A stretch of DNA of 64,000 nucleotides from an archaeon CG10_big_fil_rev_8_21_14_0_10_43_11 (GTDB lineage Archaea; Nanobdellota; Nanobdellia; PEZQ01), in contig PEZQ01000007.1 of assembly GCA_002763265.1 (NCBI GenBank), forward strand, positions 63,368 through 127,367, given 5' to 3'. The notes below the pieces were generated by a model. That model had not been told where the DNA came from. It searched no databases and saw nothing but the letters and a program-made list of their open reading frames with translations. A program made the position numbers and the translations under genes. Positions 16,779-38,607 of the stretch are shown here, piece after piece (positions within the stretch are counted from its first letter, which is position 1; each line of letters begins with the position of its first letter).

Positions 16779-16794
16779 TACTTTTCATAAGCGT

Positions 16795-16976: not shown

Positions 16977-17789
16977 TTAGACTGCTTCTTGTTCTTCTGC
17001 TTCCCCGCTGTTAATCAGCAAACTTGAAATCAGTATGAGCAATCCGCCCGCAATGCTTATTCCAATCCCCAAAGCTCCAATGTCTCTGGTTTTAACGTAT
17101 AAAATTGCTACACCAATGAGCGAAAGCGCTGCACTAAGAAGGTAATCCCCTTTCGTTACTTTTTTTGTCTTCTCTTCTTGTTTGACGGGATGAAAAAAGG
17201 TTGCTGCGCCAAGAATGGATATGATGATTATAGCGTATGTGAAATTTATAGATAATTCTTTGAATTCATTTACGAGAAGTAAACACAAAAAGATAAGGAT
17301 GCTTAATTGAAATGCGTAGTTTATGAGGAGTTCTGTTTTTTGTTCGTGATGAGAATATTCGTGTAATTTTGTATGTGCGTAACGTCTAGTATGTTTGAAC
17401 TGTCTTGACAGGATTATTTTTATATGGTTAACCGTATTGAGAGGTATTCTTTTTTTGAAATACGCCATAGTTTTGCCCACTGTTTTTGCAAGCGCTCGTA
17501 CGTTGCGATTGAATGAAGTGAATGTTTTTTTGAGTAGTTTGCTTATTGTTTTTACGGGTTTTATTCTGTTAAGAAAACAGCGGATACTCACTACATTCCT
17601 GTGCCGTAAACGAAAGTTTATGCGCACAGCGAGTGTGAGTGTTGCAACACCCAGCGTTAAGAGCAGTATCCGTTCTGATAGGTTTTGCAGATACGTGCTT
17701 TCTCCTTTTACAAACCAAAGAACGAGGGTTACCAAAGTTAGGCTGCTTAATGTTTCTCCTAGTATTTGTTTTATTTTTTGTTTTTCCAT
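16977..17789 (-). CDS. Hypothetical polytopic membrane protein
   Basis: 270-aa ORF with several hydrophobic helices and a basic cytoplasmic loop; overlaps the next ORF by 19 nt in a different frame. Confidence 0.35.
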   Translation of the reverse strand: MEKQKIKQILGETLSSLTLVTLVLWFVKGESTYLQNLSERILLLTLGVATLTLAVRINFRLRHRNVVSIRCFLNRIKPVKTISKLLKKTFTSFNRNVRALAKTVGKTMAYFKKRIPLNTVNHIKIILSRQFKHTRRYAHTKLHEYSHHEQKTELLINYAFQLSILIFLCLLLVNEFKELSINFTYAIIIISILGAATFFHPVKQEEKTKKVTKGDYLLSAALSLIGVAILYVKTRDIGALGIGISIAGGLLILISSLLINSGEAEEQEAV

Positions 17790-18175
17790 AATATTTTATT
17801 TTTAAATCTTGACTCATACTTTTTGAAAACTAAAGGAAAGAGGATTATGAGAACGGATTGTATTAAAAGGTTTAACGCGCTTAACTCTATTCTCAAGTAG
17901 TAGTTTGTGAAAAAAGTTAACATTGTCATGCTTGCGATACTAAGTGCAACACTAATCACGAATGTTTCAAGTTTGTCAATTTTTTGGATGAATGTCCTTG
18001 TTATACTATATCCTGGAAGAAAGAGTATAAAGGGAATCCCGTACACCGCGCGTAATGATGAGGTTAACGTAAACGATGGCGTTAGGGCTAGGACTAGCGC
18101 GCATAGCGTTAGTATTACTATACTGGTTCCAGCAAGTACCCACTGCCTACGCAGACTTATTTCTTTCATTATCAA
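17771..18175 (-). CDS. Hypothetical small membrane protein (4 predicted TM)
   Basis: 134-aa hydrophobic ORF; could be the N-terminal part of a frameshifted gene together with 16977-17789. Confidence 0.3.
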   Translation of the reverse strand: MIMKEISLRRQWVLAGTSIVILTLCALVLALTPSFTLTSSLRAVYGIPFILFLPGYSITRTFIQKIDKLETFVISVALSIASMTMLTFFTNYYLRIELSALNLLIQSVLIILFPLVFKKYESRFKNKILWKNKK

Positions 18176-18255
18176 ACGTAAGTGTTGCTAAGTTTTTAAT
18201 GTTATTCAATACGTGACATATTAACTTTTAACTATGCAACCGCTTAGCTATTTGC

Positions 18256-19770
18256 ATGAAAGTGGGGCTTAATTTTTTGAAAAACAAGTATTTCTTACTC
18301 TTGCTCATTTTAGGTCTTGCCTTTGTGTTAAACTTTCATATGCGCCTTGACTACGAATTTCCAATTCATGTTGATGAATGGAAGTCTTGGGCAATTTCGC
18401 AACAAATAGAAAACGACGGCATCCCCTACACAGAACCGTATCTCCAACAAAATGTAGTCCATCGCGATTTAGAAATTGGTACATTCCTTTCCATAAGTAT
18501 AATACAACAGGTAACGGGCATCCCCTGGTTGAATATATTCAGGTTCATGCCCGTAGTACTCTTACTCTTAAGCACTCTCACCGTGTATTGCATTGGAAAA
18601 CGAGAAAATATAGGGTTAGAAAGCGCACTTGTCTACACGCTTATTCCTACAAGTGTACGTTTACTTGGCCCCGTATTTCTTGTTCCAGTTTCATTCACGC
18701 TTCTTTCTGTTCTTATTGGGATACTCTTATTGACGCGAGAATTAAAAACAAAACACATTCTTACAAGTGTAAGTATTATTACACTCTATCTCGCATATGC
18801 GTATCCTCCGGCACTAATCCTATTAGGTTTTATTGTCTTGCCATTTATCGTGTTTCAAAAAAGATTCTTATTAAGTATACCATTTTTTATAGCAATAGTG
18901 GTATCCATTCCACAACATCTTAGGTATGTTATAGAAACAGAGGGGCGAGCACTTTCATTTACAGTTATTCCTGTAGTTCTAGATGTGGCGCGAGAGTTTG
19001 GTGTGGTTCTTACTGCACTCTTTGTTATTGGAGTGTATCTTGTTTGGAAACATGAGAATAGACGACTCAAGTATTTCTCGATCACAAGCATGTTTCTCTT
19101 AGTGATTATCTTCTTGTTTCACATTCAAGATTTTTCGTTTCTCATTCCTCCAACGCGCGCGTATTTCTATCTAATGGTGCTCATGGTTTTTCCAATTGGT
19201 TATACAATAAAAAACCTCATTGAACAAAAGCATGCCGCCCTTACTATAACCCTCCTGATTTTTTTGCCATTTATTCTATTTCTGATTCGAACTAATCCCT
19301 TTACCAAACCAAGTGCGGATTGGATATTTCACATCACGTTCATTCCACTGTGTATAGGAATTGCAAGCATTATGGTCCCCTTGTCTCTTCGTAAAAGAAA
19401 ACACGCGCTTACTATTCTCTGTCTTACTACCCTCATTATTGCTATTGTTATTCCTGCGTTTCAACGGAATTTAGACATGCCATACTACAATGTTATTGAT
19501 GAGCATGAATATACAACATTTCTCTCATTAAAAGAGCAATACACTGGCGGTGTTGTTGCAATTGACCCGTGGAAAGCACTTGCATTTACCCCGTTAACAG
19601 GACTTCCAGTATATTCACGAATTGGTGACGGACCAAATGAATTTTTGGCAGAACGGAATCAAGAGTTAAACTGGTTCTTTGAAGAGAACTGCGAGAATAC
19701 AACATTTATAGAAAACAATAATATTGGTTTATTCTATCCAGATACTTATTGCACACAGATTATTAAATAG
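18256..19770 (+). CDS. Large polytopic membrane protein, possible GT-C-type glycosyltransferase or glycan polymerase
   Basis: 504 aa, more than 10 hydrophobic helices, first gene of the glycan cluster; family not resolvable by eye. Confidence 0.4.
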   Translation: MKVGLNFLKNKYFLLLLILGLAFVLNFHMRLDYEFPIHVDEWKSWAISQQIENDGIPYTEPYLQQNVVHRDLEIGTFLSISIIQQVTGIPWLNIFRFMPVVLLLLSTLTVYCIGKRENIGLESALVYTLIPTSVRLLGPVFLVPVSFTLLSVLIGILLLTRELKTKHILTSVSIITLYLAYAYPPALILLGFIVLPFIVFQKRFLLSIPFFIAIVVSIPQHLRYVIETEGRALSFTVIPVVLDVAREFGVVLTALFVIGVYLVWKHENRRLKYFSITSMFLLVIIFLFHIQDFSFLIPPTRAYFYLMVLMVFPIGYTIKNLIEQKHAALTITLLIFLPFILFLIRTNPFTKPSADWIFHITFIPLCIGIASIMVPLSLRKRKHALTILCLTTLIIAIVIPAFQRNLDMPYYNVIDEHEYTTFLSLKEQYTGGVVAIDPWKALAFTPLTGLPVYSRIGDGPNEFLAERNQELNWFFEENCENTTFIENNNIGLFYPDTYCTQIIK

Positions 19771-19810
19771 ATAGAGTATGGGAGTATAAAACACGGTTAG
19801 TATTATAATC

Positions 19811-21277
19811 ATGAGAATAGATGAAATTATATCAATTAAGAATTCAAACATAGCTAAGGCTTCTATTTTCATATTGTCAAGTAAAATTATCACAATCCCG
19901 ATAGGGATGCTGCTTTTGAGCATTTTAGGAAGAAATTTATCAACGACTGAATTTGGTTTGCTTTCATTTGTACTTTCATCTGCAGTAATAATTTCATCGG
20001 TACTCGAACTGAATATTAACACGGCTATTACCGTGATAAGCTCTTCACATTTTGGGAAAAAAATGAATAAAAACGGATTCGCTGTCTTAAAACTCGGATT
20101 ATTAGCAAAATTAGCTGTTACAATGATATCTTTACCAGTAGGAGTATCACTCTCAGGCCTACTCGCGAATAACGTGTTTCATAATGCTTCATTTGAACTT
20201 CCCTTAGTTTACACGATGATACTTGCCACTGCAATTAACTTAAACAATTATTTATCCACAATTGTTAGAACATTACACAAATTTCGATCAATCTCTCTTA
20301 TTCGAGTGACCGAAGACATCATAAGAATTCTATTAATTTCATTATTCATCATCAAAGCGGATCTTACTGTTAGTAACACTATCATCTCATATATAATAGC
20401 ACTGCTCTTATCAGGGGTAGCCTATGCAAGTATTTCACCAGTAATCAACATATTGACCGCACGGATATCAAAGCGGATTACTCTAGAAGTTATTAATTTT
20501 AATAAATGGTTGATGTTTGGTCTCGCCATAAGTACAATTGGGCACAACATCGCGGCACCAATAATAACTTATTTCATTAGTGTTGAATCTGCAGGGCTAT
20601 TCTATGCTGCATTCAAAATATTAAGCCTTATGTTCCTACTATCCAACTCTTTGTCATTTATACTCCTCCCAACTTTTTCTAGACTTGAAAATGAGGAACG
20701 CTTAAAGAATACACTTAAACTATTAATAGAACGCATGAGCTTAATTGCATTTCCCATTGCTTTTGGTGTCATTGCTATTTCCAAGAATATTATATTAATT
20801 ATCTTTGGAAAAAATTATTTGGCAGCCAGCTCTGTGCTTAACTTATTGATTCCAGGATTGATTGCAGGACTTTTAACTACTGGAGCCGGACAAGCATTAT
20901 TAAGTATTAAACGCGTAAGGGAAGTTCAAATTATCCCCTTAGTTAATCTAATCTCAAATACAATAATCAGTATAGCACTAATCTCTCTTTTTGGTCTAAA
21001 TGGAGCAGCAATAGCCCTTAGCATCGGTTATGTTCTAGAGTTCTTAGTAGCATGGGGCCTAGTGTTTGTATACATACGACCAAATATAGATATACTTAAC
21101 ATTTCCAAATACTTCATCGTTTCGTTGCTTATGTATACATTTGTGTCAAAGATAGTAATTTCAAATATCGTTCTTGACATGATAATAAGTATCCTAGCGG
21201 GGATAATTATATATTCTATTGGCGTTTTCGTACTATTCAATTACCCGAGCAAAAAAAATGAAAGTTGGCCTACTTAG
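19811..21277 (+). CDS. Oligosaccharide flippase (Wzx-like, MOP superfamily polysaccharide biosynthesis protein)
   Basis: 488 aa with about 12-14 TM helices and composition typical of Wzx/polysaccharide-biosynthesis transporters; sits among glycosyltransferases. Confidence 0.65.
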   Translation: MRIDEIISIKNSNIAKASIFILSSKIITIPIGMLLLSILGRNLSTTEFGLLSFVLSSAVIISSVLELNINTAITVISSSHFGKKMNKNGFAVLKLGLLAKLAVTMISLPVGVSLSGLLANNVFHNASFELPLVYTMILATAINLNNYLSTIVRTLHKFRSISLIRVTEDIIRILLISLFIIKADLTVSNTIISYIIALLLSGVAYASISPVINILTARISKRITLEVINFNKWLMFGLAISTIGHNIAAPIITYFISVESAGLFYAAFKILSLMFLLSNSLSFILLPTFSRLENEERLKNTLKLLIERMSLIAFPIAFGVIAISKNIILIIFGKNYLAASSVLNLLIPGLIAGLLTTGAGQALLSIKRVREVQIIPLVNLISNTIISIALISLFGLNGAAIALSIGYVLEFLVAWGLVFVYIRPNIDILNISKYFIVSLLMYTFVSKIVISNIVLDMIISILAGIIIYSIGVFVLFNYPSKKNESWPT

Positions 21278-22358
21278 AGGACCTTATCTCCGCGCGAATG
21301 GGGTACTTCCATGGGAATATCTACATAACCATTCTAACATAGCTGTGACTGCCTACGCTAGCAAACCCAAACGATTTGAATATTCATCTCTTAATATGCC
21401 AGTAAAAGAATTGTTCTGGCCCGAAGGCTATTCAAAGGCTGTTAGATTCGCACTAACTAAATTAAAATTTCCAAGAAATCTGCTTTTCGATATTAAACAA
21501 GTAGTTAACGAAAATGATATTCTACATGTAAGCGAAAACTACCATCTTTTCTCCTATCAGACAGCAAAATATTGTAAGCGAAAACGATTTTTTTTTGCAC
21601 AAGGTGAAAACATCCCGCACCCCTCATCCCAGAACAGTTATTTAATAAAACACATTAAACGGTTTGTTAATAAGAACGCAGAGAAGATAACAACAACCAC
21701 AGAATTAGCAAAGAAAGCATTAATTCATGAAGGAGTAAATGATGAAAAGATATTCATTGTCCCAAACGCAACAGACACGAACCTCTTCACACCAGAACCC
21801 AAAAGAACAAGTGGAACAGACTTACCCAAAGAGCTAGAAACCACATTCAACATTATTTTTGTTGGTCGCCTGAGCGAACAGAAGGGAATACCTTGGCTAC
21901 TAGATGCTTTCAAAAGAATCAAAAAAGAAGATGTGCGACTTATTCTTATTGGAAAAAATGTTGAGCATTTCAATGTACGACATAAGCACATCTATCACAT
22001 CCCTTATGTCGAACATCAACAGTTACCAAGAATTTATAACTTAGCAGACATAGGGATATTACCAAGTATACCTACCAAAAACAATGAAGAACAGTTCGGT
22101 CAAGTTGTGCATGAAGCCATGGCATGCGGAAAGCCTACACTTGTGACAAATGTGGGGGGTATGCCTGAGATAGTTACTGAAAAAACAAGCTTTGTAATAA
22201 ATTATAAATCACCACAGGATATTAAAGAGAATATCTTATACTTTTACCAAAATGAAACGGAAAAGAAAAGAATGGGTCAAGCTGCAAGACAGCATATAGA
22301 AAGAGAATATACTCCACGCATCATCGCAAACAAACTAAAGAGGCTATATCATGAATAA
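21258..22358 (+). CDS. Glycosyltransferase family 4 (GT-B fold)
   Basis: C-terminal GT4 signature EQFGQVVHEAMACGKPTLVTNVGGMPEIV. ORF track starts at 21219; internal Met at 21258 chosen to avoid a 59-nt overlap with the flippase. Confidence 0.75.
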   Translation: MKVGLLRGPYLRANGVLPWEYLHNHSNIAVTAYASKPKRFEYSSLNMPVKELFWPEGYSKAVRFALTKLKFPRNLLFDIKQVVNENDILHVSENYHLFSYQTAKYCKRKRFFFAQGENIPHPSSQNSYLIKHIKRFVNKNAEKITTTTELAKKALIHEGVNDEKIFIVPNATDTNLFTPEPKRTSGTDLPKELETTFNIIFVGRLSEQKGIPWLLDAFKRIKKEDVRLILIGKNVEHFNVRHKHIYHIPYVEHQQLPRIYNLADIGILPSIPTKNNEEQFGQVVHEAMACGKPTLVTNVGGMPEIVTEKTSFVINYKSPQDIKENILYFYQNETEKKRMGQAARQHIEREYTPRIIANKLKRLYHE

Positions 22359-23127
22359 CCAACTTCATGAAACAATATGCAAATTCTCTGAGGTAAACAA
22401 AGAATATAGCCCCGATGAAGTAACGCAAAAATTCTTTCCACAGACAGTATTTCCATCAGCAAAACTGCGAATTAAAGTAATACAGAAATATTCACGAGAA
22501 AGAAGTTTTTTGCTTGATGCAGGATGTGGAACAGGATGGGTTTCTTCTGAGCTTTCGAAAAATAGGAAAATTATATCTCTAGATTTATCAGACTCTGCGC
22601 TGGGAGAAGCTAAAATGCTGAAAACATTCACAAAATCAACAAATACCTTAGTAAAAGCGGATGTTCAAAAAATTCCAATTAAAAATAAAAGCATAGATAC
22701 CATTTTTTCTTTTTCGATGATTGAGCATATACCTAATGTTAATAATGCTCTTGGTGAGTTTAAACGAATTTTAAAAAAAGATGGAAAGATAATAATACTC
22801 GTTCCAAACAAGTATGGCGCTTATTGCGTGCTCTATGATATATTGATGAATAGAGGCGGACAACACAATTATGGGAACATACGCACAGATCATGAGAACT
22901 TACAGGGCTTTTCCGCATGGAAAAATGTCTTTGAAGAGAACAATCTTAAACTATTAGAAACGCTGAATACAGAATTTCTCACACCATTCATCGCATACAT
23001 TTTCAAGAGGAGTAATAAACAACAAAAATCAACAAAAACTCTAAGGAAAATTGACTCTTTCATCGCGAAGTTCGTGCCAAAACATATTGCTTCTGCATGG
23101 ATCTTTATTTTAGAGGAGAGAAAATGA
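22351..23127 (+). CDS. Class I SAM-dependent methyltransferase
   Basis: Motif I LLDAGCGTGWVSSEL; post-I acidic residue; DTIFSFSMIEH. Confidence 0.7.
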   Translation: MNNQLHETICKFSEVNKEYSPDEVTQKFFPQTVFPSAKLRIKVIQKYSRERSFLLDAGCGTGWVSSELSKNRKIISLDLSDSALGEAKMLKTFTKSTNTLVKADVQKIPIKNKSIDTIFSFSMIEHIPNVNNALGEFKRILKKDGKIIILVPNKYGAYCVLYDILMNRGGQHNYGNIRTDHENLQGFSAWKNVFEENNLKLLETLNTEFLTPFIAYIFKRSNKQQKSTKTLRKIDSFIAKFVPKHIASAWIFILEERK

Positions 23128-23912
23128 TCTGCTTAACCGGAGACGTTCACCACATCATAAATTCAAAAGAACAACAAATCTGTGATAAAACTGAACAAGA
23201 ACTTGCAATTACTTACACAGAAATCGCAAGAAAAAATGGACTCAAAATCACACTGTTCCTAACTGGAAAATGCGCGAAGGACAAAGAATTTATTCAAACA
23301 TTACAAAACTTTGAGAACCTAGAAATTGGGGGTCACACATATAGTGCGTTCCGCCCGACAATACTATACAAATTCATGAAAAAGATGAGCGGAAAAACGT
23401 ATGGCCCGTATTTCAATCAGGCACTTGATATTTCTTGGACGATAAAAGCGTTCAAAAAGAGAGGAGTAGACATCACTTCATGGCGCACACACGCCTACGC
23501 ATCTGATGCTAACACAGTGAAAATATTACAAGAACAAGGAATAAAAGTCATATCAGATATCGTTAAACCAAATATTGAACCAAAAGAAGAAAACGGGGTA
23601 ATGATTTTACCAATTAATGTGCTGCCTGACCATGAGCATTTATATCATGGATTTAGAACAAAGACAGTTGTAACTAATTTTCTTAAAACAGGATGGACAG
23701 ATTCCTTCACCAATAAATCATTCAGTGGAGATCAATGGCTCAAACAAGTTAAGGAACAAATAAGAGAAAATGAAAAACAAGGAATTGTTTCTACATTAAT
23801 TGTCCATCCACAATGCATGTACAATCTTAACAAATTTAGCACATTTAAGCAATTATGCAAGACGTTAAAAGGATACGGAACAAGCAATGCACGGGATATC
23901 ATATGCGACTAG
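23124..23912 (+). CDS. Putative polysaccharide deacetylase-like hydrolase
   Basis: Resembles divergent carbohydrate deacetylases (MICLTGDVHH..., GGHTYSAFRP); weak assignment. Start set at the internal Met (ORF track 23097). Confidence 0.35.
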   Translation: MICLTGDVHHIINSKEQQICDKTEQELAITYTEIARKNGLKITLFLTGKCAKDKEFIQTLQNFENLEIGGHTYSAFRPTILYKFMKKMSGKTYGPYFNQALDISWTIKAFKKRGVDITSWRTHAYASDANTVKILQEQGIKVISDIVKPNIEPKEENGVMILPINVLPDHEHLYHGFRTKTVVTNFLKTGWTDSFTNKSFSGDQWLKQVKEQIRENEKQGIVSTLIVHPQCMYNLNKFSTFKQLCKTLKGYGTSNARDIICD

Positions 23913-24868
23913 ATATAATAACTGAATTCACTGAAAAAACTAAAAAACAATGGGATAATCTAATATATCATTCAAAAACAGGCACTTTCTTCCAAACAAC
24001 AGAATGGCTTGAAAGTGTACAAGCAGGATTAAACCTACCAGCAAAGCATCTAGTTGCTTACGAAACAGATAGGTTAATAGGCGTTTTCCCCAACTTCATC
24101 AAAAACAAGAGGGCAAATATCAAGAAAAACGTGTCGATACCTCTTGGCAGTGGAGGACCTGTGATCATCAAAGATGAAAAAAAAATAATACATCTCATGC
24201 TAAAATTACTTGACAAGAACCTATACTCCCAACATAAAATAATCTGTCATGACCACGCATATCTCAGATATAATGATTTTTTTAAGTTGTTTGATTACAA
24301 ATTAGACATGGATAGTTGTAGATTCATTATCGATCTTGATTCCTATAATATTAATAAAGACGTGAAACCTTCAAGAAAGCGAAAGATAAAAAACGCAAAT
24401 AAAAAGATTCAGATTTCAATCCTTCCTTTAACTGAAGATAACCTACGCACTTTTTACGCGCTCTACAGTTCATTAGTAAAAAAATTTGGTTCAACTGCTC
24501 TCCCCTTCAATTTTTTTAGTGTATTATTAGAAAAATGCGCATCAAACATTCTCTTAGTTGGCGCTTCGCTTGAAAAAATTATCATTGGCAGTCACCTGTA
24601 CATACTTGATAACTCGCGTTCAACAATATTTCACTTCCTAAGTGGGATTGAAAAAGGATATACAAATGACCATATATCTGATATACTACACAAGTATGCC
24701 CTTAACTGGAGCGTACAAAACGGATACCGGTACTATGATTTTGGTAATGCTCGCACAAATTTCGAGGATGGGTTATTCAGATACAAAGAAAGCTTTGGCG
24801 GTAGACCTGTACCAACAATCACATGGACGAAAAATTCAAAACTATATAAATTACTGAAAATAAAGTGA
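23900..24868 (+). CDS. FemAB-like / GNAT-fold acyltransferase (Acetyltransf_6-like)
   Basis: About 320 aa two-lobed GNAT-like protein (TEWLESVQAG..., ...LYILDNSRSTIFHFLSGIEKGY...YYDFG) typical of FemAB-related proteins associated with polysaccharide loci. Confidence 0.5.
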   Translation, partial: HMRLDIITEFTEKTKKQWDNLIYHSKTGTFFQTTEWLESVQAGLNLPAKHLVAYETDRLIGVFPNFIKNKRANIKKNVSIPLGSGGPVIIKDEKKIIHLMLKLLDKNLYSQHKIICHDHAYLRYNDFFKLFDYKLDMDSCRFIIDLDSYNINKDVKPSRKRKIKNANKKIQISILPLTEDNLRTFYALYSSLVKKFGSTALPFNFFSVLLEKCASNILLVGASLEKIIIGSHLYILDNSRSTIFHFLSGIEKGYTNDHISDILHKYALNWSVQNGYRYYDFGNARTNFEDGLFRYKESFGGRPVPTITWTKNSKLYKLLKIK

Positions 24869-25470: not shown

Positions 25471-25525
25471 AGACAACATCAAATTCACAAAACTATTTAT
25501 ATGATTATCAATTGTTATCTTTCAA

Positions 25526-29144: not shown

Positions 29145-29229
29145 AACTTTTTAGTATGGAATACACTATTAAGGATTCTGATATCACAGATGAAAAAAAA
29201 TAGTGCGAGTTCAACAAGAAACGATAGCT

Positions 29230-30297: not shown

Positions 30298-30323
30298 GAA
30301 TTAAAAATAAAAAGTAATAGGTA

Positions 30324-31958
30324 CTACTCTACTTTATATACAGAAATTATTTGAGAAAACACCTTTGTTGTCGGGTCTTTGCCACTTTTTGTGTAAACTA
30401 AATCTAAATGTGAATCATTCGATTCGCTTGCTATATAGTCTGAAAGATAAGGCCACCGCTCATAATGACGTAAAGGATATAAGTGAAGAACAATCAGATA
30501 GTCAACTGAATGATTTTCTATCAATCGCTCAAATTCTATTCTTCTTCTTGGAACGCTTGTTATTTCTTGATTCGCATATACGGTAAGCGCAGTATACGCA
30601 TTAGAGAGGATACTATCAGACGAATTCGTATTTTGGAATATCCAGCTAGCAGCATCTGATAAAAACTCGTCAGATTGAACAGGAAAAAACAGAGATGAAA
30701 AACTAATTAAAACAACAAAGAGGAGGGTTACTGCTAAGAAAAATATACGAGGAGTAAAGACTTTTTTGAAGCTGTACACTACAAGAAAAGAAAATATTGG
30801 TAAAACAAACAGAAGATGTCTTGTTCCATGAGCCCAGTAGACTAAAATAAAAGCAAAGACAGAATAATAAAAAATAAGAATCGCTAATAATATTTGTTTT
30901 GGTATTTTACGCTTACCCAGAAATATAAGAAGTGGTAATCCTATCAACAGAGCAGTGTGACCAAATAGAGAGGCTAGCCTATTTTGAATTATTCCGAGAT
31001 TATCTGATAACGAACGCAAAAATTCAAAGGAGTCTGTTACTAAAAAACTTAAACTCGGCAAGGAAAAAACAAGTAAAACAAAACTCATAATTAAAAAAAG
31101 TTTTATTTTTTTGGAACGGGAAAAGAAGAATAAAGGGAAGAAAATAAAGGAAGATTGTTTAATCAAAAAAGAAAGGGTAAGAAAAATATATGAACTAAAC
31201 AAGAGCGATCTATTCCTTTCTTTGCTATATCTTAAGAATAAGAATAAGCTAAAAGATAATGTAATCGCTAAAAAAATATCAGAGTATAAACGTGGTGAGT
31301 TAAACCATACTGTAGGAAAAACAACTACCAGTAAAGAAGCAAACCACGCTAAACGTTTTGAAAAAAGTGAGCCGATAAGATAGGTAACTATTGGTAATAG
31401 AGATGATAAAAAAATCATCACATAACGCAAAAATAGAAGAGAAAAATGAAGTTCACCGAAAAAAGCAAGAACAAGAGAGAAGAATACACGGAAAATATTT
31501 GAAAGGGCTAAAAAAGTGGAAGGGTGTAAAATAGACCAGGCGTAAGCATATTCATCCTCGGTACCCATCATATGTAAGTTCCGCGTCAGTTGTAAAACTA
31601 AAAAAATAAAAGAAAGGCAGATTATAAAAAGTTCCGATTTCTCAGGATTCACCTGTTTATTGAAGTCTAAAAGGTGCAAGATTGTAAGAACAACAATAAA
31701 CAAGTTGCAAAATAGTAGAGCGCTAATACTAATAAAGTAACTTAAAAACTGTATAATTGAAAAAATACTCAACACTCCTAAAATACCAGCAATCAAAAGC
31801 TCAAGAAAAGAAAAGAGTTTATTAAATGGTTTAAACAAGGTTGCAAAACCAATACCAATAAAGGGTAGTGACAGAACTACAAGAAAGAGAGTATTCTCCT
31901 CTAGTAAGCCTATGTTTAATAAAACCAACCCTATAAGCGGATAAAGCCAAATACGCAT
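30324..31958 (-). CDS. GT-C-type membrane glycosyltransferase or glycan polymerase (ArnT/PMT-like)
   Basis: 544 aa; more than 10 N-terminal TM helices followed by a roughly 120-aa soluble C-terminal domain, the topology of GT39/GT83-like enzymes. Confidence 0.4.
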   Translation of the reverse strand: MRIWLYPLIGLVLLNIGLLEENTLFLVVLSLPFIGIGFATLFKPFNKLFSFLELLIAGILGVLSIFSIIQFLSYFISISALLFCNLFIVVLTILHLLDFNKQVNPEKSELFIICLSFIFLVLQLTRNLHMMGTEDEYAYAWSILHPSTFLALSNIFRVFFSLVLAFFGELHFSLLFLRYVMIFLSSLLPIVTYLIGSLFSKRLAWFASLLVVVFPTVWFNSPRLYSDIFLAITLSFSLFLFLRYSKERNRSLLFSSYIFLTLSFLIKQSSFIFFPLFFFSRSKKIKLFLIMSFVLLVFSLPSLSFLVTDSFEFLRSLSDNLGIIQNRLASLFGHTALLIGLPLLIFLGKRKIPKQILLAILIFYYSVFAFILVYWAHGTRHLLFVLPIFSFLVVYSFKKVFTPRIFFLAVTLLFVVLISFSSLFFPVQSDEFLSDAASWIFQNTNSSDSILSNAYTALTVYANQEITSVPRRRIEFERLIENHSVDYLIVLHLYPLRHYERWPYLSDYIASESNDSHLDLVYTKSGKDPTTKVFSQIISVYKVE

Positions 31959-32020
31959 AAGAAAAGATTACCTAACAGCAGAATTTAAAGTTATTATCAA
32001 TCAAAACTATAGAGAAATCA

Positions 32021-33076
32021 CTAACAAATCTGTTCATATAACTGAGAAACTCTCTGCAAAATAAGAGACCACGAATGATTCTTCATTACGAAATTCCTAC
32101 CGTTTCTTTTAAGCTTTAAACGTAACTCCTTGTTTATAATAATATCAAACATTGCAGCTTCTAATGAATCAATATCTCCAGAATCAATAATCATGGCAGA
32201 ATGCTCTTCCTCAAGAATTCTATGACCCCCAACAGCAGTAGTGATGACTGGAAGCCCAGCTGATAAAGCTTCTAACACTGTTAGTGAAAATCCTTCAAAG
32301 TATGAGGGGTTAAGAAGAACATCTGCTTTATTAAAGACAGTAGGCATGTTAGCATGCGAAATGCTGCCCAAATAAGTAACACCTTCAGTTTCTTTTGCAA
32401 GAGACAAGAGGGATCCCTTACCTGCAACTAAGAGTTGAACAGTTTTATATTTAGCATGCACGCGTTCAAATGCAGAAATTACATCATGAAATCCCTTTGC
32501 TTTTGTCAGACTTGACGCAAAAAGAAACGTGTTTGAAAAACGCTTTTGAACAGGGTAAAAAAGCTCAGTATCAACTGGATTCGGCAGATATGAAGAGGAA
32601 ACTTTGTTAATTTCGCTCTGGTAGCTTCTCTGTGAATTCCTATCACAAAACGCAACGTGATCTGGAGAGAAAAGTGACAACATGATTTTTTTATAGTGGT
32701 TAGAACCTGCGTTTGGCGTTTTAAGAGAATTGAGGGAATGAAAAAGAAAAGGAACTTTTGTTTTTAGAGAGACAACTCGAAGTGCTGGTATTGAAGACCA
32801 AGAAACGGAATGAATGATATCACATTCTTTGAAATATGCGACATGTTTCAAGATAGATCTGCTATTCTTAAAAAAACGAATCGGAAACGACGCAGTAGTG
32901 TTTGAAAGCGCATTCGTAAATGCAGCTTTGATTTTTTCTTCATTATTAGAAAAAGAAAAAATAGTGGTTTCAATACCCTTTTTTTGCAAAGAAACAGCTA
33001 AATCATGGATATGATTAGTTCCACCATAGTTATGGTCAGAAAGATTCATATCATCAATAATAAGACAAGCTTTCAT
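32021..33076 (-). CDS. Glycosyltransferase family 4
   Basis: YFEGFSLTVLEALSAGLPVITTAVGG motif. Confidence 0.7.
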   Translation of the reverse strand: MKACLIIDDMNLSDHNYGGTNHIHDLAVSLQKKGIETTIFSFSNNEEKIKAAFTNALSNTTASFPIRFFKNSRSILKHVAYFKECDIIHSVSWSSIPALRVVSLKTKVPFLFHSLNSLKTPNAGSNHYKKIMLSLFSPDHVAFCDRNSQRSYQSEINKVSSSYLPNPVDTELFYPVQKRFSNTFLFASSLTKAKGFHDVISAFERVHAKYKTVQLLVAGKGSLLSLAKETEGVTYLGSISHANMPTVFNKADVLLNPSYFEGFSLTVLEALSAGLPVITTAVGGHRILEEEHSAMIIDSGDIDSLEAAMFDIIINKELRLKLKRNGRNFVMKNHSWSLILQRVSQLYEQIC

Positions 33077-33720
33077 TATCTCACTCCTACCTTCTTTGCT
33101 ATCACTACAGTATAGGGTGCAATAAGTTTAAGAGGGAATCCTATTCCCTTTGTCCGGATAATTTCAAAACCACTATCTTGAAGTAATTTTTGTATCGTGG
33201 CAAAGGACCTACTGCATAACAGAAATTCATCACTGCTTTTTTTTCGATATCTCCACCACAAGAGGGGGTTACATGAATTTTTGAACTCAAAAATTAGAAT
33301 TCCTTCTTTCTTAAGAACGGCGTGCATTTGTTTAAGAGAGTTGACAACAACATCATCGGGAAGGTGGTGCATCACATCCACACAAAGAACAAAATCGAAG
33401 GAACTGTCCCTGAACGGTAAATTTTCCGCATCAGCATTAACGGGGCAGGGTGGAAACTGAACAGTCTTCTTAAAAAATTGCAACATATTAAATGAAAAAT
33501 CAACTGAAACAACAGATAAGCCGCGTTTAAGTAGTTGCGAAGAGTAAATACCAGGACCACAACCAAGGTCAAGTAACGTGCCTGAACGATTTTCTAAAAA
33601 ATCAAGCACGTAAGATAGTTCTCTTTTTTTAAGACGACCCCATGGTTTTGAGTCATCAAACATAGCCATAGGGGGGTCATTATCATAATGTTTTCTAATA
33701 TTATCTTTAGCGATTACCAT
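33076..33720 (-). CDS. Class I SAM-dependent methyltransferase
   Basis: LLDLGCGPGIYSSQL motif I; CVDVMHHL. Confidence 0.7.
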   Translation of the reverse strand: MVIAKDNIRKHYDNDPPMAMFDDSKPWGRLKKRELSYVLDFLENRSGTLLDLGCGPGIYSSQLLKRGLSVVSVDFSFNMLQFFKKTVQFPPCPVNADAENLPFRDSSFDFVLCVDVMHHLPDDVVVNSLKQMHAVLKKEGILIFEFKNSCNPLLWWRYRKKSSDEFLLCSRSFATIQKLLQDSGFEIIRTKGIGFPLKLIAPYTVVIAKKVGVR

Positions 33721-34327
33721 TTTTTATCACAGCGATATAAAAATGTCTAAATGGCTTAGAATAGTTCTCATACAACACTTTTGCCCCAGACTGCTCATAC
33801 AATTCATGCCATTCAGTTAATGTTCTATACTTTGTTCCCCCATCAAGACATTTCCACCATATATTCTTTATCAAACGCACAAACCCCTTGTTGGAATTAA
33901 TATTATCCAATATTAACGTGTAGCTTGAAACACGTAATGATTCCTCAATAGCATAAACTACTTTACCAATAGGTATATGATGCACAACCGATGACAAAAC
34001 GCTCAAATCAAAACTGTTATCACGGAAGGGAGCATTTTCTGCGCGACCTACGACAAATGACTTAGTTAGGTTAGATGCATGTTTAACCATTTCAAAACTT
34101 GGATCTATTCCATAAAATTTTTCAACATCCAATCCTAAATTCGTTTGTAAATCCCCCCGACCACAACCAAGATCAACAATAGAACGAACATTAAACCTTA
34201 AAACTATATCTTGAACGTCCCATGTCTTCTTAAAATAACGCTTAGCATATTTCCCTACTCTTGATAAAAGCACTATCTTCATTCGATAAAGTGAGGGTGT
34301 ATCAAATATCCTTTCTTGTAAACTCAT
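33707..34327 (-). CDS. Class I SAM-dependent methyltransferase
   Basis: IVDLGCGRGDL motif I; VLSSVVHHI. Confidence 0.7.
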   Translation of the reverse strand: MSLQERIFDTPSLYRMKIVLLSRVGKYAKRYFKKTWDVQDIVLRFNVRSIVDLGCGRGDLQTNLGLDVEKFYGIDPSFEMVKHASNLTKSFVVGRAENAPFRDNSFDLSVLSSVVHHIPIGKVVYAIEESLRVSSYTLILDNINSNKGFVRLIKNIWWKCLDGGTKYRTLTEWHELYEQSGAKVLYENYSKPFRHFYIAVIKNGNR

Positions 34328-35430
34328 TTTAATATCCCCTTATAAAAATTAATCGTAGCTAAACCAACATGTTTCCATGAATATTTTAAAGCTATAACCC
34401 CTTTTAATTTGTATCCTACCTGCGTAATATCTCTTTTATTGTTAATAAACTTCATAATAGCTCTACCCAACGCCTTACCCGAATAAGGTTCTATAACCAC
34501 TCCTAGTTTCTCCTTTAAAAATAATTCAGAAACACCCGCACCATACGTAACAATCACTGGTTTGCCCATAGCGCCGGCTTCAAGGGCAACCATACCAAAA
34601 CTTTCCTCAATCGACGGGGAGGGTAGCACGAACACATCACACTCTTCATACATCTTTAGAAGCTCTTTTTCTGGGAGAAAGTTCCGAAAAATTATTTTTC
34701 TCTCAAGACCAAGTTCAAGTACTTTTTTCTTAATCATTGCTTCTTGCGGACCATTGCCAACAATAGTAAAACTCACCTTTTCATTCTCGAGTAACTTTGC
34801 AGCGTCAACTAAATAGTCCAATCCCTTATAACGTCGTAAAGCACCCACAAACAAGACTTGTAACGGAGAATGAAGATTTCTCTTTTTGGCAACAAATTTT
34901 TTCGTGTCAACACCATGATAAATAACGTTTATTTTCTTCTTGTACCTTGAAAGAAATTTTGATGATTTAATTGCCTTACGCGAATTAACAATGATACCTG
35001 CAGCATGCTTCAAAATGAAAGTATAACAAAACTTATTATACAACGAAGAAGGCAATCCGAAAAACCAGTTCATGCGAATCTCTTTACCATGAGAATAGAC
35101 AACATAGGTCTTTCTCGCAATAATACATGCAAGAGCCCCAATATCTAAAAAAATAGGATGCGGATAATGGAGTTGCACGATATCCGCATCAGACTTCAAA
35201 ATTTCAAAGAAAATCCCTAAAGAAAAAGGCATACCAAGAATGGATAGTGATTTAACTCGCTTTATGGGAATTCCATCCATAACTTCAAAAGATTTTTTAG
35301 AGCCTAAAGTCGAGGTAAGCACTGAAACATCATGACCTTGTTTCATCATTTCTTTGCTCAAATAATACACGTAGTAAGGCACCCCACCTTTTCGTGGAAG
35401 AAACGTTGAAGGAACTTGCAATATCTTCAT
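34324..35430 (-). CDS. Glycosyltransferase family 4
   Basis: ESFGMVALEAGAMGKPVIVTYGAGVSE motif. Confidence 0.75.
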   Translation of the reverse strand: MKILQVPSTFLPRKGGVPYYVYYLSKEMMKQGHDVSVLTSTLGSKKSFEVMDGIPIKRVKSLSILGMPFSLGIFFEILKSDADIVQLHYPHPIFLDIGALACIIARKTYVVYSHGKEIRMNWFFGLPSSLYNKFCYTFILKHAAGIIVNSRKAIKSSKFLSRYKKKINVIYHGVDTKKFVAKKRNLHSPLQVLFVGALRRYKGLDYLVDAAKLLENEKVSFTIVGNGPQEAMIKKKVLELGLERKIIFRNFLPEKELLKMYEECDVFVLPSPSIEESFGMVALEAGAMGKPVIVTYGAGVSELFLKEKLGVVIEPYSGKALGRAIMKFINNKRDITQVGYKLKGVIALKYSWKHVGLATINFYKGILK

Positions 35431-36518
35431 CCAAACAATTCCTCCATTAGTGGTACGACACGCGCGTCAACAGGTATTCCCAAAACCCGCGAAGCCAGAC
35501 TATCCGAAACAGGACACACCCCTCTCTCAACAGGAAACCCACCAAACAAGGAAACTGCTTCAACCCCTTGCTTCTTTAGTCTGAGGATTGTATTCGCTTT
35601 ATAGTCTGTTGAAAACATAAGACGATTAAACGTGCTTTTTCCATTTTCTTTTTGCACAACAAAGCCGTGTTCACTTAGTTTTTTCCTCAAGAGAAGTGAC
35701 ACTTTTCGTCTATGCTCTAATTCAAGGGAAAAGTCACGCAATTTCACAATTCCCAGTGACGCGAGATACTGTGACGGATTCGCAGCTAATTGCGATGATA
35801 GATGGGCATATTGAGTTTTGAGACGTTTCTGTTTGACAAAATGTCCTGCATATGAATAGACTGTTTCATTAGTAAGGACAGACGCCACAAAATTTCGTAC
35901 GAAATTCGTTAGGCCTTGTGATGAAAAGGCAACACGCTGTTTTATGAATGAGTGCACCCCCTCATTATTTGTTGCAACAGATCCTAAACCACCAAGGGCA
36001 AGCGATTTTCCCAAACCAAAACTAAAAATAGTTGCATCAGCAAAAGAACCTACACACCTATTTTTGTATCGTGCACCAAATGCGGTTGCTGCATCATCAA
36101 TAAAAAAAAGTTCATTATCCTGACAAAAATCGTGCAACTCATCTAAGCGCGCAGGATTACCAAAAGGGTCAACTGAAATAAGAATCTTTGAACCAGTTTT
36201 TGCAAAATCCACATTTTCTGAGTCAAGCGCATAATCCTCACTACGCACGTCAGCAAGAACAGGTTTTGCCCCAGCATATTTCACAACGTCTGCAACAATG
36301 TCTGCAGTAAACGCGGGCATGACAACTTTTGACGGCGCGCCAGCGTACTTTAGTAGGTGAAACAATGCCTGTCTTCCAGATGCACAGAGCGCAACATATT
36401 TTACTCCCAAAAAGTCACTCAGTTCCTTCTCGAACTGGGATATGGATTGCTTGTTCATCCTAAAAAGTGCAGTGTATGCTTCGTTCAGACTTAATTGAGG
36501 TGTGTGAGCAGGAATCAA
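35427..36518 (-). CDS. DegT/DnrJ/EryC1/StrS-family PLP-dependent sugar aminotransferase
   Basis: 363 aa; fold-type I aminotransferase pattern with Asp (FFIDDAATAFGA) and Lys-containing loop (SFGLGKSLA). Confidence 0.7.
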   Translation of the reverse strand: MIPAHTPQLSLNEAYTALFRMNKQSISQFEKELSDFLGVKYVALCASGRQALFHLLKYAGAPSKVVMPAFTADIVADVVKYAGAKPVLADVRSEDYALDSENVDFAKTGSKILISVDPFGNPARLDELHDFCQDNELFFIDDAATAFGARYKNRCVGSFADATIFSFGLGKSLALGGLGSVATNNEGVHSFIKQRVAFSSQGLTNFVRNFVASVLTNETVYSYAGHFVKQKRLKTQYAHLSSQLAANPSQYLASLGIVKLRDFSLELEHRRKVSLLLRKKLSEHGFVVQKENGKSTFNRLMFSTDYKANTILRLKKQGVEAVSLFGGFPVERGVCPVSDSLASRVLGIPVDARVVPLMEELFG

Positions 36519-37535
36519 CTACGGAAACCTCCGTTTTATCTGAGGGCCGATATAGGGATTGCATAAGACTCTTTGAGCATGCTTGACAAGCGGAGAAAGA
36601 AAAAGAAATTTTTTCTTATCTATGCTCTCCCCTTTTACGTGCACGCTATTGAGAATGGCTTGTTTTGAACCCCACTTGCTTTTAAAACGCATATACGAAT
36701 CACGGGGTTGGGTTCTACCAAAATCTATGCGAGAACAGCCTACATCTAATGCATGTTTTATTTGTTCATTATACAGCACATCATTTGACATGCAAGAACT
36801 ATATGATAAGTTAGAGGCCATGTTCCACATAAGTGCTGTTTTTCCATGATAAAACGTAAGCATCACTCCAATAGGGATTTCATACGTATAGCACATGGTA
36901 AAACGGGCACAGTTCACATATGAGTTTATATTCGTAAATAATGACTTTGCATGCGGCGGACTTCCCAATTCTTTCATTCGTTTGATATAGAATGAATAGT
37001 ATGTATCAATATCCTTGGTTTCACACACATGAATGCCTGAATTATTTGCTTTACGGATTGCTTTTCGAATTCCAGATTTTTTTGTGTAAACACCATGCCA
37101 AATATCATTATCAAAATCTTTTCCAGCAATGTCAAGATAGTACAGGTAACCATTCAGTTTCTTGTTCTCATGGGCAATAGGATAAAATGGAGACTCTCTA
37201 AATTCGATAACGTCCGCATCAAATGACTTGTAAAATTCAATAAATTTTTGTATATCCTCAACTCTGTTGACAAGAGGATACCCGTACTCAGCAAAAGGCT
37301 GAGAAACAATAGAGTTACCCTTAATTGTTTTAACAAGAAAAGCAGGGCAAACACCAACAATCTTGCCTTTATCCTCGAGAATAGTGTAAAGTGGTTTGTA
37401 GCCATACGTTTCTTCTAACACTCGCTTCCAACCAAGCGTGTGAAAAATAGTGCTATGCGGATGTTTTTTGACATACTCATGATAGGTGCGTTCTTGTGCT
37501 GATTCCAGCAATTTTACCGGCATTGTATTTAACAA
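36519..37535 (-). CDS. FemAB-like / GNAT-fold acyltransferase (second copy)
   Basis: 338 aa, same two-lobed architecture as 23900-24868. Confidence 0.5.
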   Translation of the reverse strand: MLNTMPVKLLESAQERTYHEYVKKHPHSTIFHTLGWKRVLEETYGYKPLYTILEDKGKIVGVCPAFLVKTIKGNSIVSQPFAEYGYPLVNRVEDIQKFIEFYKSFDADVIEFRESPFYPIAHENKKLNGYLYYLDIAGKDFDNDIWHGVYTKKSGIRKAIRKANNSGIHVCETKDIDTYYSFYIKRMKELGSPPHAKSLFTNINSYVNCARFTMCYTYEIPIGVMLTFYHGKTALMWNMASNLSYSSCMSNDVLYNEQIKHALDVGCSRIDFGRTQPRDSYMRFKSKWGSKQAILNSVHVKGESIDKKKFLFLSPLVKHAQRVLCNPYIGPQIKRRFP

Positions 37536-38359
37536 CCTCCATGATATGTTATCACGTTCTTAGGATACAAGTTAAGCATATCACGAAAACAAGTGAAATT
37601 AAAATCTTCATCTTGCAACGTATCCAAAACAGAACCAAACACACTTTGATAATAGTTTCCTGTTCTCCAGCGAACTCTAAACGGGAGAGGTGTTGATGCC
37701 AGATTAAGAAATTCCCAAGGGTGAAAATACAAACAAATTGTCTGCGAGTGCGCAGTCAAACGTTGCACCCCATCTAAAACAAATTGTTTTCCAAGCAAGC
37801 GAACCCACGCACCACCCAAGGGCAATTTAAAAACAGGATGAACTGACAACGGAAATTCAGGAATACTCATATTTTGAGGAAATTTCTTACCGCCATAAAA
37901 AAAAGGTATTTTAATGCTTGGCATATAAGAGCTACTATACTGATACCCGGCTTGCTTAAGCAGGTGATAATCTTCGTGGTTCATGCTAAACGTTGGAGCT
38001 CGAAAGCCAATCACTTTTTTTCCTGAAATTTTTTCAAGCACCTTCTTAGATTCCACAACTTCTCGTCTAAAATCATCTTTTGTACAGCGGTTAAGAAACG
38101 GGTGCGTTTGAGAATGTGACGCGATTTCATGTTTTCGCGCAATTTCTTTGATTATATGTTGGTTCTTTTGGGCAAACTCACCTACCACGAAAAACGTTGC
38201 CAAAACATCGTGATTGGCCAACATATCAAGAATCAAACCAAGCGCGTGAGAAAGGTCTAGGTCAAGCTCATCTTTTCTCACGCCCCGTCTCAACGCTTTT
38301 TTTCCTGCAGGAATGTGATACAAGTTCTCAACATCAAAGGAAATAATTGCTTGTTTCAC
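37529..38359 (-). CDS. Polysaccharide deacetylase family protein
   Basis: N-terminal ISFDVEN...LATFFVVGEFAQKN...HEIASHSQTHP resembles NodB-type deacetylases (DVE in place of D-D, His-containing motif). Confidence 0.6.
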   Translation of the reverse strand: MKQAIISFDVENLYHIPAGKKALRRGVRKDELDLDLSHALGLILDMLANHDVLATFFVVGEFAQKNQHIIKEIARKHEIASHSQTHPFLNRCTKDDFRREVVESKKVLEKISGKKVIGFRAPTFSMNHEDYHLLKQAGYQYSSSYMPSIKIPFFYGGKKFPQNMSIPEFPLSVHPVFKLPLGGAWVRLLGKQFVLDGVQRLTAHSQTICLYFHPWEFLNLASTPLPFRVRWRTGNYYQSVFGSVLDTLQDEDFNFTCFRDMLNLYPKNVITYHGGC

Positions 38360-38607
38360 GTTTTCCCCTTCCTCCTCCTTGATTGAACGCGCACAAGACT
38401 CAACTCATCATTTAAGACAGAAAGTTTAACCTCAAGATTCTTAACTTCCTTAAACAACATGAACAGTAAGAACACAATAACAAGAATGCTAAAACCAAGA
38501 ATTGCATTTGTTCTCGTCCCAATACCCGTTATAACAAGGACATATTTAACAAAATCCACACCCACTGAATAGAGCAGCATTGCAAGACCAACAAGCGACC
38601 AGCTCAC
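38356..38607 (-). CDS. Small membrane protein with C-terminal coiled coil (DUF2304-like GT2 partner)
   Basis: 83 aa; two TM helices then EVKNLEVKLSVLNDELSLVRVQ. Confidence 0.35.
   Translation of the reverse strand: MSWSLVGLAMLLYSVGVDFVKYVLVITGIGTRTNAILGFSILVIVFLLFMLFKEVKNLEVKLSVLNDELSLVRVQSRRRKGKT

Follow-up and report, generated by a model that had tools for sequence, protein, structure and literature searches.

A low-GC, probably exchanged surface-glycan island in a DPANN-like archaeon, comparable to O-antigen, capsule and agl loci

The uncultured archaeon CG10_big_fil_rev_8_21_14_0_10_43_11 is represented by a metagenome-assembled genome (MAG) from Crystal Geyser groundwater. A 64-kb stretch of it (hereafter the window) contains a block of about 22 kb that is compositionally foreign to the host and carries genes for glycosyltransferases, sugar-modifying enzymes and a lipid-linked glycan flippase. 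The host is a DPANN-like archaeon; a LonB fragment from the window matches a protein of this MAG at 100% identity, and its nearest named relatives are Nanoarchaeota, Woesearchaeota and Diapherotrites, all members of DPANN. We regard the block as a surface-glycan island that is low in GC, variable and non-mobile, an archaeal match to O-antigen, capsule and agl loci, which has probably been exchanged; it is of an ordinary kind and represents no new type of system. More specifically, we consider it somewhat better than an even chance that the unit headed by a family 2 glycosyltransferase (GT2) gene, at about 16.6-39.4 kb, was swapped or extended by recombination within its archaeal gene pool, the partners being members of lower GC.

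The first-pass annotation of the window had reported an AT-rich block of about 22 kb, and computation bears this out: GC is 0.354 in 16977-38607, as against 0.445 in 1-16976 and 0.439 in 38608-64000. In a 1-kb profile, GC stays at 0.31-0.38 from 17 to 35 kb and at 0.38-0.40 from 35 to 39 kb, most of the flanks lie at 0.41-0.52, and short dips also occur in the flanks at 12-13 kb and 49-51 kb. Binary likelihood segmentation divides the window into 1-16625 (GC 0.447), 16626-34525 (0.345), 34526-39175 (0.390) and 39176-64000 (0.440). A model with one island places its top interval at 16500-39000 with a log-likelihood ratio (LLR) of 234.8, whereas 200 shuffles of 500-nt blocks gave 30.6 +/- 9.4 and a maximum of 64.9. 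The deviation extends to the genes themselves. GC at third codon positions (GC3) is 0.24-0.35 per gene in the island against 0.41-0.59 in most flank genes, with GC1 and GC2 likewise lower, and the residues F, Y, M, I, N and K make up 35.6% of island proteins against 27.9% in the flanks. A leave-one-out likelihood on synonymous codons puts 18 of 18 core genes on the island side (negative LLR) and the flank genes on the flank side, the exceptions being the toxin-antitoxin genes, a thioredoxin gene and one 135-amino-acid (aa) open reading frame (ORF). Correlations of TETRA z-scores tell the same story: the left and right flanks correlate at 0.84, but the core reaches only 0.56 and 0.61 with them. 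The block thus deviates in GC, in codon usage and in its oligonucleotide signature, in the way used to recognize genomic islands, and by none of these measures is the window uniform. The reference for host composition is the 64-kb window together with the 43% GC given in the bin name, rather than the whole genome.

Comparison with relatives separates two parts of the locus. A search with CysN, which is encoded just outside the low-GC block, returned no close relative from genome and metagenome contig collections (best matches 41-43% identical, one partial match 47%). A GDP-fucose synthase was dropped as an anchor for the left flank since the family is too promiscuous and its sole close match (83%) lies on a 2-kb contig. 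A search with the FemAB-like protein, on the other hand, led to a 60% homologue in GCA_053534155.1, of whose locus (L174) 21 kb are covered in the comparison. This relative encodes, with percent protein identity in brackets, YdjM, an epimerase (55), thioredoxin (47), UDP-sulfoquinovose synthase (76) and an enzyme of the alkaline phosphatase (AP) superfamily (64). In the divergent part follow a ribbon-helix-helix (RHH)-like protein (81), CysD (88), CysN (56), DUF2061 (51), GT2 (70) and DUF2304 (56). Onward come the deacetylase (64), FemAB-like protein (60), DegT (52), two family 4 glycosyltransferases (GT4; 60 and 63), a laminin-G protein, and a 560-aa PMT_2 protein (39). The two GT4 genes (at 32021 and 34324 in the window) stand side by side in the relative, without the methyltransferase genes between them. 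The shared backbone therefore extends well into the low-GC core. About 15 kb in total are without counterpart in the 21 kb compared from this one relative. They comprise the membrane-protein ORFs at 17.0-18.2 kb, all of the plus-strand operon (18.3-26.9 kb), three GT4 genes (26.9-30.3 kb) and the pair of methyltransferase genes that separates the two GT4 genes mentioned above.

The relative's locus has a GC of 0.366 and a uniform GC3 of 0.27-0.41, with no break. A second relative, GCA_053534095.1, was recognized by the housekeeping synteny of ScpA/ScpB, split LonB, TldD and PmbA, and its locus (L181) has a GC of 0.354. Measured against these two, the window's GC3 is higher by 0.071 in housekeeping genes (z=4.7, second relative) and by 0.060 in the cys/sulfoquinovose module (z=4.1, first relative); the offset is +0.024 from GT2 to DegT (z=1.3) and -0.017 in GT4/GT4/PMT_2 (z=-1.0), both against the first relative. 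Thus, the host genome appears to have been raised in GC relative to its relatives, and the GT2-headed unit has not. The cysD/cysN module, with an offset much like that of the housekeeping genes, looks native to the host. The idea that the segment from GT2 to DegT is an older, ameliorated layer had to be softened; its GC3 of 0.342 is close to the core value and does not significantly exceed that of the relative. The tetranucleotide signature of the core correlates with the first relative at 0.72, no less than it does with the flanks of the window. Beyond these two genomes, a Methanoperedens contig (L175) carries a homologous deacetylase-FemAB-DegT-GT4 cassette in an island of 28-36% GC beside DNA of 46-51% GC, and weaker GC dips accompany related cassettes on two other contigs. 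We infer the direction and mode of transfer from these patterns: exchange would have taken place at a conserved locus without an integrative element, as in the hypervariable O-antigen, capsule and agl loci, with partners resembling the relatives of 35-37% GC.

A possible alternative, which we hold with less confidence, is that the locus was inherited vertically and drifted toward AT in place. Accessory glycan genes evolve fast and are weakly expressed, and in them selection or biased gene conversion would have done little to offset AT-biased mutation, whereas GC elsewhere in the genome climbed to about 44%. Several observations weigh against exchange or fit such drift. The backbone, GT4, GT4 and PMT_2 included, is syntenic in the first relative; these three genes show no GC elevation and are only 39-63% identical, as would also be expected if they had descended vertically. 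In that relative, too, GC3 falls along the array (0.41 to 0.28), where there is no genome-level discrepancy, so the genes themselves account for part of the gradient. Low-GC glycan cassettes recur on unrelated contigs and could owe their composition to the kind of genes they hold. Homologue searches of contig and representative collections found neither a donor nor a near-identical cassette. The radical SAM (S-adenosylmethionine) enzyme, the one protein searched from the roughly 15 kb without counterpart, is orphan-like: its closest non-self match is 32-33% identical, with none above 33% among 1.84 billion representatives, so no donor can be named. There is no Pfam match to an integrase or transposase among the window proteins scanned, the search for direct repeats or att sites around the island gave short chance matches only, and the nearest tRNA, a tRNA-Met, lies 3.1 kb off with genes of native composition between; the mobility gene, tRNA insertion and direct repeats typical of genomic islands are thus all missing here. 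The GC3 offsets come from two different MAGs, with a single syntenic relative. The glycan pathway itself is also affected: no initiating phosphoglycosyltransferase (PF00953/PF02397) was detected among the window proteins scanned, and no AglB/STT3 among the window ORFs accepted as genes with a length of 100 aa or more, the latter possibly being encoded elsewhere in the genome. Since the window has neither, its pathway and acceptors are something we can only infer.

What speaks against drift is, first, the sharp step at the left edge, where GC3 falls from 0.450 (15144-16778) to 0.351 (16977-17789) between adjacent genes. Moreover, the tetranucleotide signature deviates although it is normalized for lower-order composition, and AT-richness at third positions is no lower in conserved soluble enzymes such as DegT, radical SAM and the methyltransferases than in membrane proteins. 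The roughly 15 kb without counterpart in the 21 kb compared also count against descent in place. Finally, the toxin-antitoxin genes of the flanks, a classically mobile class, carry the same signature; because they share low GC and island-like codons, low GC marks the flexible gene pool here.

The first-pass annotation had placed the composition break inside one long operon and read it as a laterally acquired cassette fused to a native promoter-proximal module. In its strict form, this means that a foreign cassette was newly joined to native GT2/cysN/cysD genes to give one chimeric operon on the native promoter, a reading that we consider improbable. It is favored by the minus-strand array from 42018 down to 26905, which is co-directional and tightly packed with several 4-nt overlaps (true gaps measure 53, 62, 26 and 85 nt), and by the composition step between cysN/DUF2061 and GT2. 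That step does exist, and cysD and cysN are native-like as claimed; GT2, however, had been counted with them and in fact lies on the low side, with a GC3 of 0.318, outside the native module. The break in synonymous-site composition and codon usage falls between DUF2061 and GT2, where the gap is 53 nt. Some 25 nt before the GT2 start codon, this gap holds a 16-nt promoter-like motif, AACAATTCTTTTAAAC, which the first relative shares at 15 of 16 positions and at equal distance to GT2, although the proteins are only about 60% identical. It is the sole match in the window with fewer than two mismatches. Its TTTTAAAC part is positioned like the TATA-like boxes found at -26 to -33 before many genes of the window, including those for PMT_2 (-31), the radical SAM enzyme and the flippase; further TATA-like boxes stand at -43/-41 before the GT4 gene at 29230. 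Because this conserved TATA/BRE-like (B recognition element-like) motif sits exactly at the synonymous-site GC break, the break most likely marks a transcription-unit boundary at a conserved internal promoter rather than the interior of an operon. The short or overlapping co-directional junctions of 42018-26905 are those of an operon, but judged by sequence alone the array has candidate internal promoters, and it is probably not one long operon.

The proposed fusion is also at odds with synteny. Because the first relative has the same order at 39-88% protein identity, the cysN/DUF2061/GT2 junction is, on gene order, the ancestral or standard layout of the locus and not a new fusion; the genes around the junction are 51-88% identical, and the arrangement would predate the divergence of the lineages or be the standard one. 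What stands of the earlier claim is that the block is compositionally foreign and that the cysD/cysN module looks native; a donor was not found, and this module is itself a widespread cassette. The right boundary also had to be moved. It had been set at 38607, which lies within the DUF2304 gene, and the composition boundary falls at about 39.2-39.45 kb. Position 38607 is the first canonical start (GTG) of that gene, but a tblastn comparison with the intact 117-aa protein of the first relative shows DUF2304 homology running on in frame to the GT2 stop codon, so the apparent gap of 95 nt (38608-38702) is coding. The frame is conserved for 31 codons upstream of the GTG (38608-38706), among which there is no ATG, GTG or TTG; at its upstream end an ATA overlaps the GT2 stop codon. 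A frameshift was rejected, as the upstream homology stays in the same frame and the problem is the missing canonical start. The gene would either use a non-canonical start or have lost its start codon and first transmembrane (TM) helix.

That the low-GC block comes from another, lower-GC organism and was joined to the window by misassembly or misbinning is very improbable: the core does resemble the low-GC relatives in GC and tetranucleotides, and some short-read assembly contigs end at 17.7-18.2 kb and 35.6 kb, which could be branches of the assembly graph, but independent assemblies bridge both composition boundaries (two from ENA at the left; one from Logan, one from JGI and two from ENA at the right) and the relative has the same junction order. 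In all, the locus was recovered on 13 contigs assembled at ENA, JGI or Logan, 12 at 100% nucleotide identity and one (L168) with a single mismatch in 21 kb; as the contigs are identical, they are uninformative on strain variation.

The locus consists of a conserved precursor module of native composition (RHH-CysD-CysN-DUF2061 and the divergent AP enzyme, sulfoquinovose synthase, thioredoxin and epimerase) beside a GT2-headed assembly unit (GT2/DUF2304, deacetylase, FemAB-like protein, DegT, several GT4, methyltransferases and the PMT_2 protein, a membrane glycosyltransferase of the GT-C fold). A convergent operon contributes the Wzx-like flippase and a polytopic membrane protein, one GT4, methyltransferases, a B12-binding radical SAM enzyme and another deacetylase/FemAB-like pair. 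Gene families were called by Pfam and NCBIfam profile searches against their cut-offs (Table 1). Most of the gene list given earlier holds, with six GT4, the flippase, four methyltransferases, the radical SAM enzyme, the aminotransferase, two FemAB-like proteins, the PMT_2 protein and one deacetylase; the second deacetylase (23097-23912) stays below cut-offs, and the 504-aa protein called GT-C-like matches no family.

From these families a pathway may be sketched. The CysDN and sulfoquinovose-synthase module would supply a sulfo-sugar, GT2 (top NCBIfam matches AglJ and PpgS, both below cut-offs) would make a polyprenyl-phosphate sugar, and the cytoplasmic GT4s would build the glycan on a polyprenyl-phosphate carrier. 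Its sugars could be aminated by DegT, de-N-acetylated and then re-acylated or aminoacylated by the two deacetylase/FemAB-like pairs, methylated by the four methyltransferases and altered by the radical SAM enzyme. The flippase (matches to TuaB and MOP flippases are below NCBIfam cut-offs) would turn the product over, and PMT_2, perhaps with the 504-aa protein, would finish it outside the membrane with the lipid-phosphate sugar made by GT2; the donor of PMT_2 is presumably a polyprenyl-phosphate sugar. The 504-aa protein has no Pfam, NCBIfam or PDB sequence match, and a single-sequence AlphaFold2 model (mean predicted local distance difference test score 47.8) was unusable, so that its fold is not assignable; it could be a GT-C, a polymerase (Wzy-like) or a ligase. 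The finished glycan would decorate the surface proteins encoded alongside, in which N-X-S/T sequons reach 3.7-4.4 per 100 aa against about 0.5 in other proteins and which are plausible glycan acceptors.

Two places in the window, 23097-24868 (+) and 36519-38359 (-), have a deacetylase gene with a FemAB-like (Acetyltransf_6) gene immediately after it. Between the two pairs, the FemAB-like proteins share about 20% identity, and the deacetylase-like ones have no mutual BLASTP match. The pair is present in every related archaeal cluster looked up (L174, L175, L177/178 and L179/180), often followed by DegT or a hexapeptide acetyltransferase, and it looks like a conserved, uncharacterized sugar-modification module. 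To our knowledge it has no counterpart in characterized agl pathways; a literature search on AglU/MMP1084 as a possible analogue of the FemAB-like protein turned up nothing relevant in the library consulted.

Synteny of the divergent precursor module is kept in L174 and in two further loci, L017 and L156. Of 160 cysN loci, 54, spread over very diverse taxa, have the RHH-cysD-cysN order, and an AP-superfamily protein accompanies cysDN in 63 of the 160, joined by sulfoquinovose synthase and thioredoxin in the same three loci. The loci found with CysN show the RHH-cysDN-AP-enzyme module to be widespread, and the cysDN/sulfoquinovose module is a cassette that unrelated genomes with GC contents of 36-62% also carry. 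The promoter region between the RHH gene and the divergent AP-superfamily gene contains, upstream of the former, a 22-nt motif, TTATTAATGCAGTTTAATTAAA, with a TTTAATTAAA palindrome; it is conserved in the first relative, occurs once in the window and was absent from 100 shuffles. The sulfoquinovose synthase homologue scores 425.7 bits to NF041015. Neither adenosine 5'-phosphosulfate (APS) reductase nor APS kinase is encoded in the window, so APS could be channelled either to sulfite or to a sulfated sugar. The synthase homologue bears a Cys-rich N-terminal extension of about 80 aa (43396-43640, +; C3, C10, C13, C27, C48 and C66), the start of which is kept in the relative, and the thioredoxin gene follows directly after. 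The C-terminus of the RHH-like protein (...RLRSLGYLD) resembles that of CysD (...KLRSLGYM); the protein may be an autoregulator or a CysN-binding mimic.

Table 1. Features of the 64-kb window
Feature	Coordinates	Strand	Basis or remarks
Two large secreted surface proteins	1501-8325	-	541 aa, 14 sequons; 1732 aa, 76 sequons; candidate glycan acceptors
Exosortase/archaeosortase-family protein	9374-9997	+	207 aa; generic family signature only, 61.3 bits vs 23
HicB/HicA pair	12016-12454		Toxin-antitoxin-like; low GC, island-like codon usage
tRNA-Met	13400-13476		Between first two toxin-antitoxin-like pairs
79-aa protein and ParE-like toxin	13726-14307		Toxin-antitoxin-like; low GC, island-like codon usage
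Two secreted/anchored surface proteins	14468-16778	-	Abut island; native composition; one of 544 aa with 20 N-X-S/T sequons
Low-GC island core	16626-34525		GC 0.345, pooled GC3 ~0.30; segmentation, codon LLR, TETRA
Two overlapping membrane-protein ORFs	16977-18175	-	270 aa, 6 TM (crude count), no family; 134 aa, DUF1616-like
504-aa protein	18256-19770	+	~12 TM, soluble C-terminal part
MOP-family (Wzx/MurJ-like) lipid-linked glycan flippase	19811-21277	+	Polysacc_synt_3, Polysacc_synt and MurJ above Pfam cut-off
GT4	21219-22358	+	Pfam
Class-I SAM methyltransferase	22351-23127	+	Pfam/NCBIfam
Weak deacetylase-like protein	23097-23912	+	Below Pfam cut-offs
FemAB-like protein	23855-24868	+	Pfam/NCBIfam
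Class-I SAM methyltransferase	24865-25470	+	Pfam/NCBIfam
B12-binding radical SAM enzyme	25526-26923	+	Pfam/NCBIfam
Three GT4	26905-27963, 27960-29144, 29230-30297	-	Pfam; without counterpart in 21 kb of L174
PMT_2-family GT-C membrane glycosyltransferase	30324-31958	-	PF13231, 27.9 bits vs cut-off 26.1
GT4	32021-33076	-	Pfam
Class-I SAM methyltransferase	33076-33720	-	Pfam
Class-I SAM methyltransferase	33707-34327	-	Pfam
GT4	34324-35430	-	Pfam
Intermediate-GC segment	34526-39175		Total GC 0.390, GC3 0.342 island-like; DegT, FemAB-like, deacetylase, DUF2304, GT2
DegT-family sugar aminotransferase	35427-36518	-	Pfam/NCBIfam
FemAB-like acyl/aminoacyl-transferase	36519-37535	-	Pfam/NCBIfam
DUF3473-type polysaccharide deacetylase	37529-38359	-	Pfam/NCBIfam
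DUF2304 small membrane protein	38356-38702	-	Pfam; first canonical start GTG at 38607
GT2, polyprenyl-phosphate sugar synthase-like (AglJ/PpgS-like)	38703-39401	-	PF00535
Promoter-like motif AACAATTCTTTTAAAC	39423-39438	-	16 nt; at GC3/codon break
DUF2061	39455-39721	-	Pfam
CysN-like GTPase	39724-40953	-	Pfam/NCBIfam
CysD	40960-41754	-	Pfam/NCBIfam
RHH-like protein	41770-42018	-	82 aa; Pfam/NCBIfam
Conserved motif TTATTAATGCAGTTTAATTAAA	42029-42050	-	Divergent promoter region, RHH gene/AP-superfamily gene
Divergent precursor module	42119-46177	+	AP-superfamily enzyme, UDP-sulfoquinovose synthase-like, thioredoxin, NDP-sugar dehydratase/epimerase
AP-superfamily 'Phosphodiest' (type I phosphodiesterase) protein	42119-43399	+	Pfam/NCBIfam
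143-aa protein and NTP_transf_2 protein	49351-50318		Toxin-antitoxin-like; low GC, island-like codon usage
LonB as two adjacent ORFs split within intein	57649-60081	-	336-aa N-part, 454-aa C-part, 57 nt apart

Bacterial O-antigen and capsule clusters are typically low in GC and are exchanged by recombination in conserved flanks. The locus described here resembles these Wzx-dependent clusters, and the "replacement" type of flexible island, in having a low-GC block of glycosyltransferase, sugar-modifying and Wzx genes at a fixed site between conserved genes, in lacking mobility genes and, as far as the 21 kb compared from one relative show, in a content that differs between relatives. It differs in its archaeal host and in that no Wzy, Wzz or initiating phosphoglycosyltransferase was recognized in the window; of the components of a Wzx/Wzy system, the Wzx-like flippase is present, no polysaccharide copolymerase (PCP/Wzz) was found, and the 504-aa protein has no family match. 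With archaeal agl clusters, including the Agl3 route of Sulfolobus, it shares an AglJ/PpgS-like GT2, several glycosyltransferases, methyltransferases, a flippase, a homologue of UDP-sulfoquinovose synthase and sequon-rich surface proteins encoded next door. All agl-type matches, that of GT2 among them, are nevertheless below curated cut-offs, and the AglB (STT3) expected with such a set of GT2, cytoplasmic glycosyltransferases, flippase and acceptors is not in the window. A complete agl or Wzx/Wzy pathway cannot be claimed from the window alone. A third likeness is to the exopolysaccharide loci of PEP-CTERM/XrtA systems: the deacetylase, both FemAB-like proteins and two GT4 best match the TIGR03006, TIGR03019 and stp GT4 families, and an exosortase/archaeosortase-family gene is present at a distance of 27 kb. 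The scores, however, are far below the equivalog cut-offs (e.g., 123.6 vs 260; 134 vs 276). The sortase-family protein fits no described subclass (XrtA score 16 vs 208), and by eye the C-termini of the neighboring surface proteins have no shared sorting motif or PEP-CTERM-type signal; the locus is thus not placed among these systems.

The cell surface is the interface at which DPANN archaea attach to their hosts and meet viruses. If the exchange reading is right, a glycan cassette swapped on a conserved scaffold would be an archaeal counterpart of bacterial serotype loci, and it would show which genes are worth tracking in populations of these uncultured archaea. A more speculative extension, which we put forward only tentatively, is that the clade keeps a fixed scaffold (the sulfo-sugar module and the GT2-headed unit) and swaps the distal cassette in a serotype-like manner. 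The cassette would then specify an undescribed, heavily methylated glycan of sulfoquinovose or sulfated sugar, with amino sugars de-N-acetylated and then re-acylated or aminoacylated by the deacetylase and FemAB-like module. That module and the RHH-CysDN-AP-enzyme-sulfoquinovose module are reasonable targets for biochemistry. The locus also offers a caution: even where genes are tightly packed, a break in GC does not have to signal a chimeric operon. In this case it coincides with a conserved promoter-like motif and an ancestral gene order. No result presented here overturns current understanding.

A parallel from the same superphylum is "Ca. Mancarchaeum acidiphilum" Mia14, a DPANN archaeon with genomic islands that carry glycosyltransferases and laminin-G surface proteins (PMC5498576). 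The likeness lies in the setting, a DPANN genome with compositional islands of glycosyltransferase, toxin-antitoxin and surface-protein genes, and the first relative of our archaeon encodes its laminin-G protein inside the array. The largest Mia14 island, however, is described as an integration that split a host gene (PMC5498576), whereas no integration scar is seen here.

At the left edge of the island, the match of the 134-aa ORF to DUF1616 is confined to the N-terminal third of that family (Pfam E=6.9e-6, below the cut-off), and the ORF overlaps the 270-aa ORF with six TM segments by 19 nt; the two may be a split or frameshifted DUF1616 gene. An intact DUF1616 gene adjoins the Methanoperedens island. 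In the right flank, LonB is encoded as two ORFs. The N-part ends in the N-half of an intein (CFLAS...TPEH...ILVA*) and the C-part opens with an intein C-half of about 39 aa (MSLKED...VLATN|S). The same split is found in the second relative (7954-11359 of L181), and many LonB homologues in DPANN stand alone, with lengths of 452-457 aa. A split intein or split gene common to the lineage would fit this picture.

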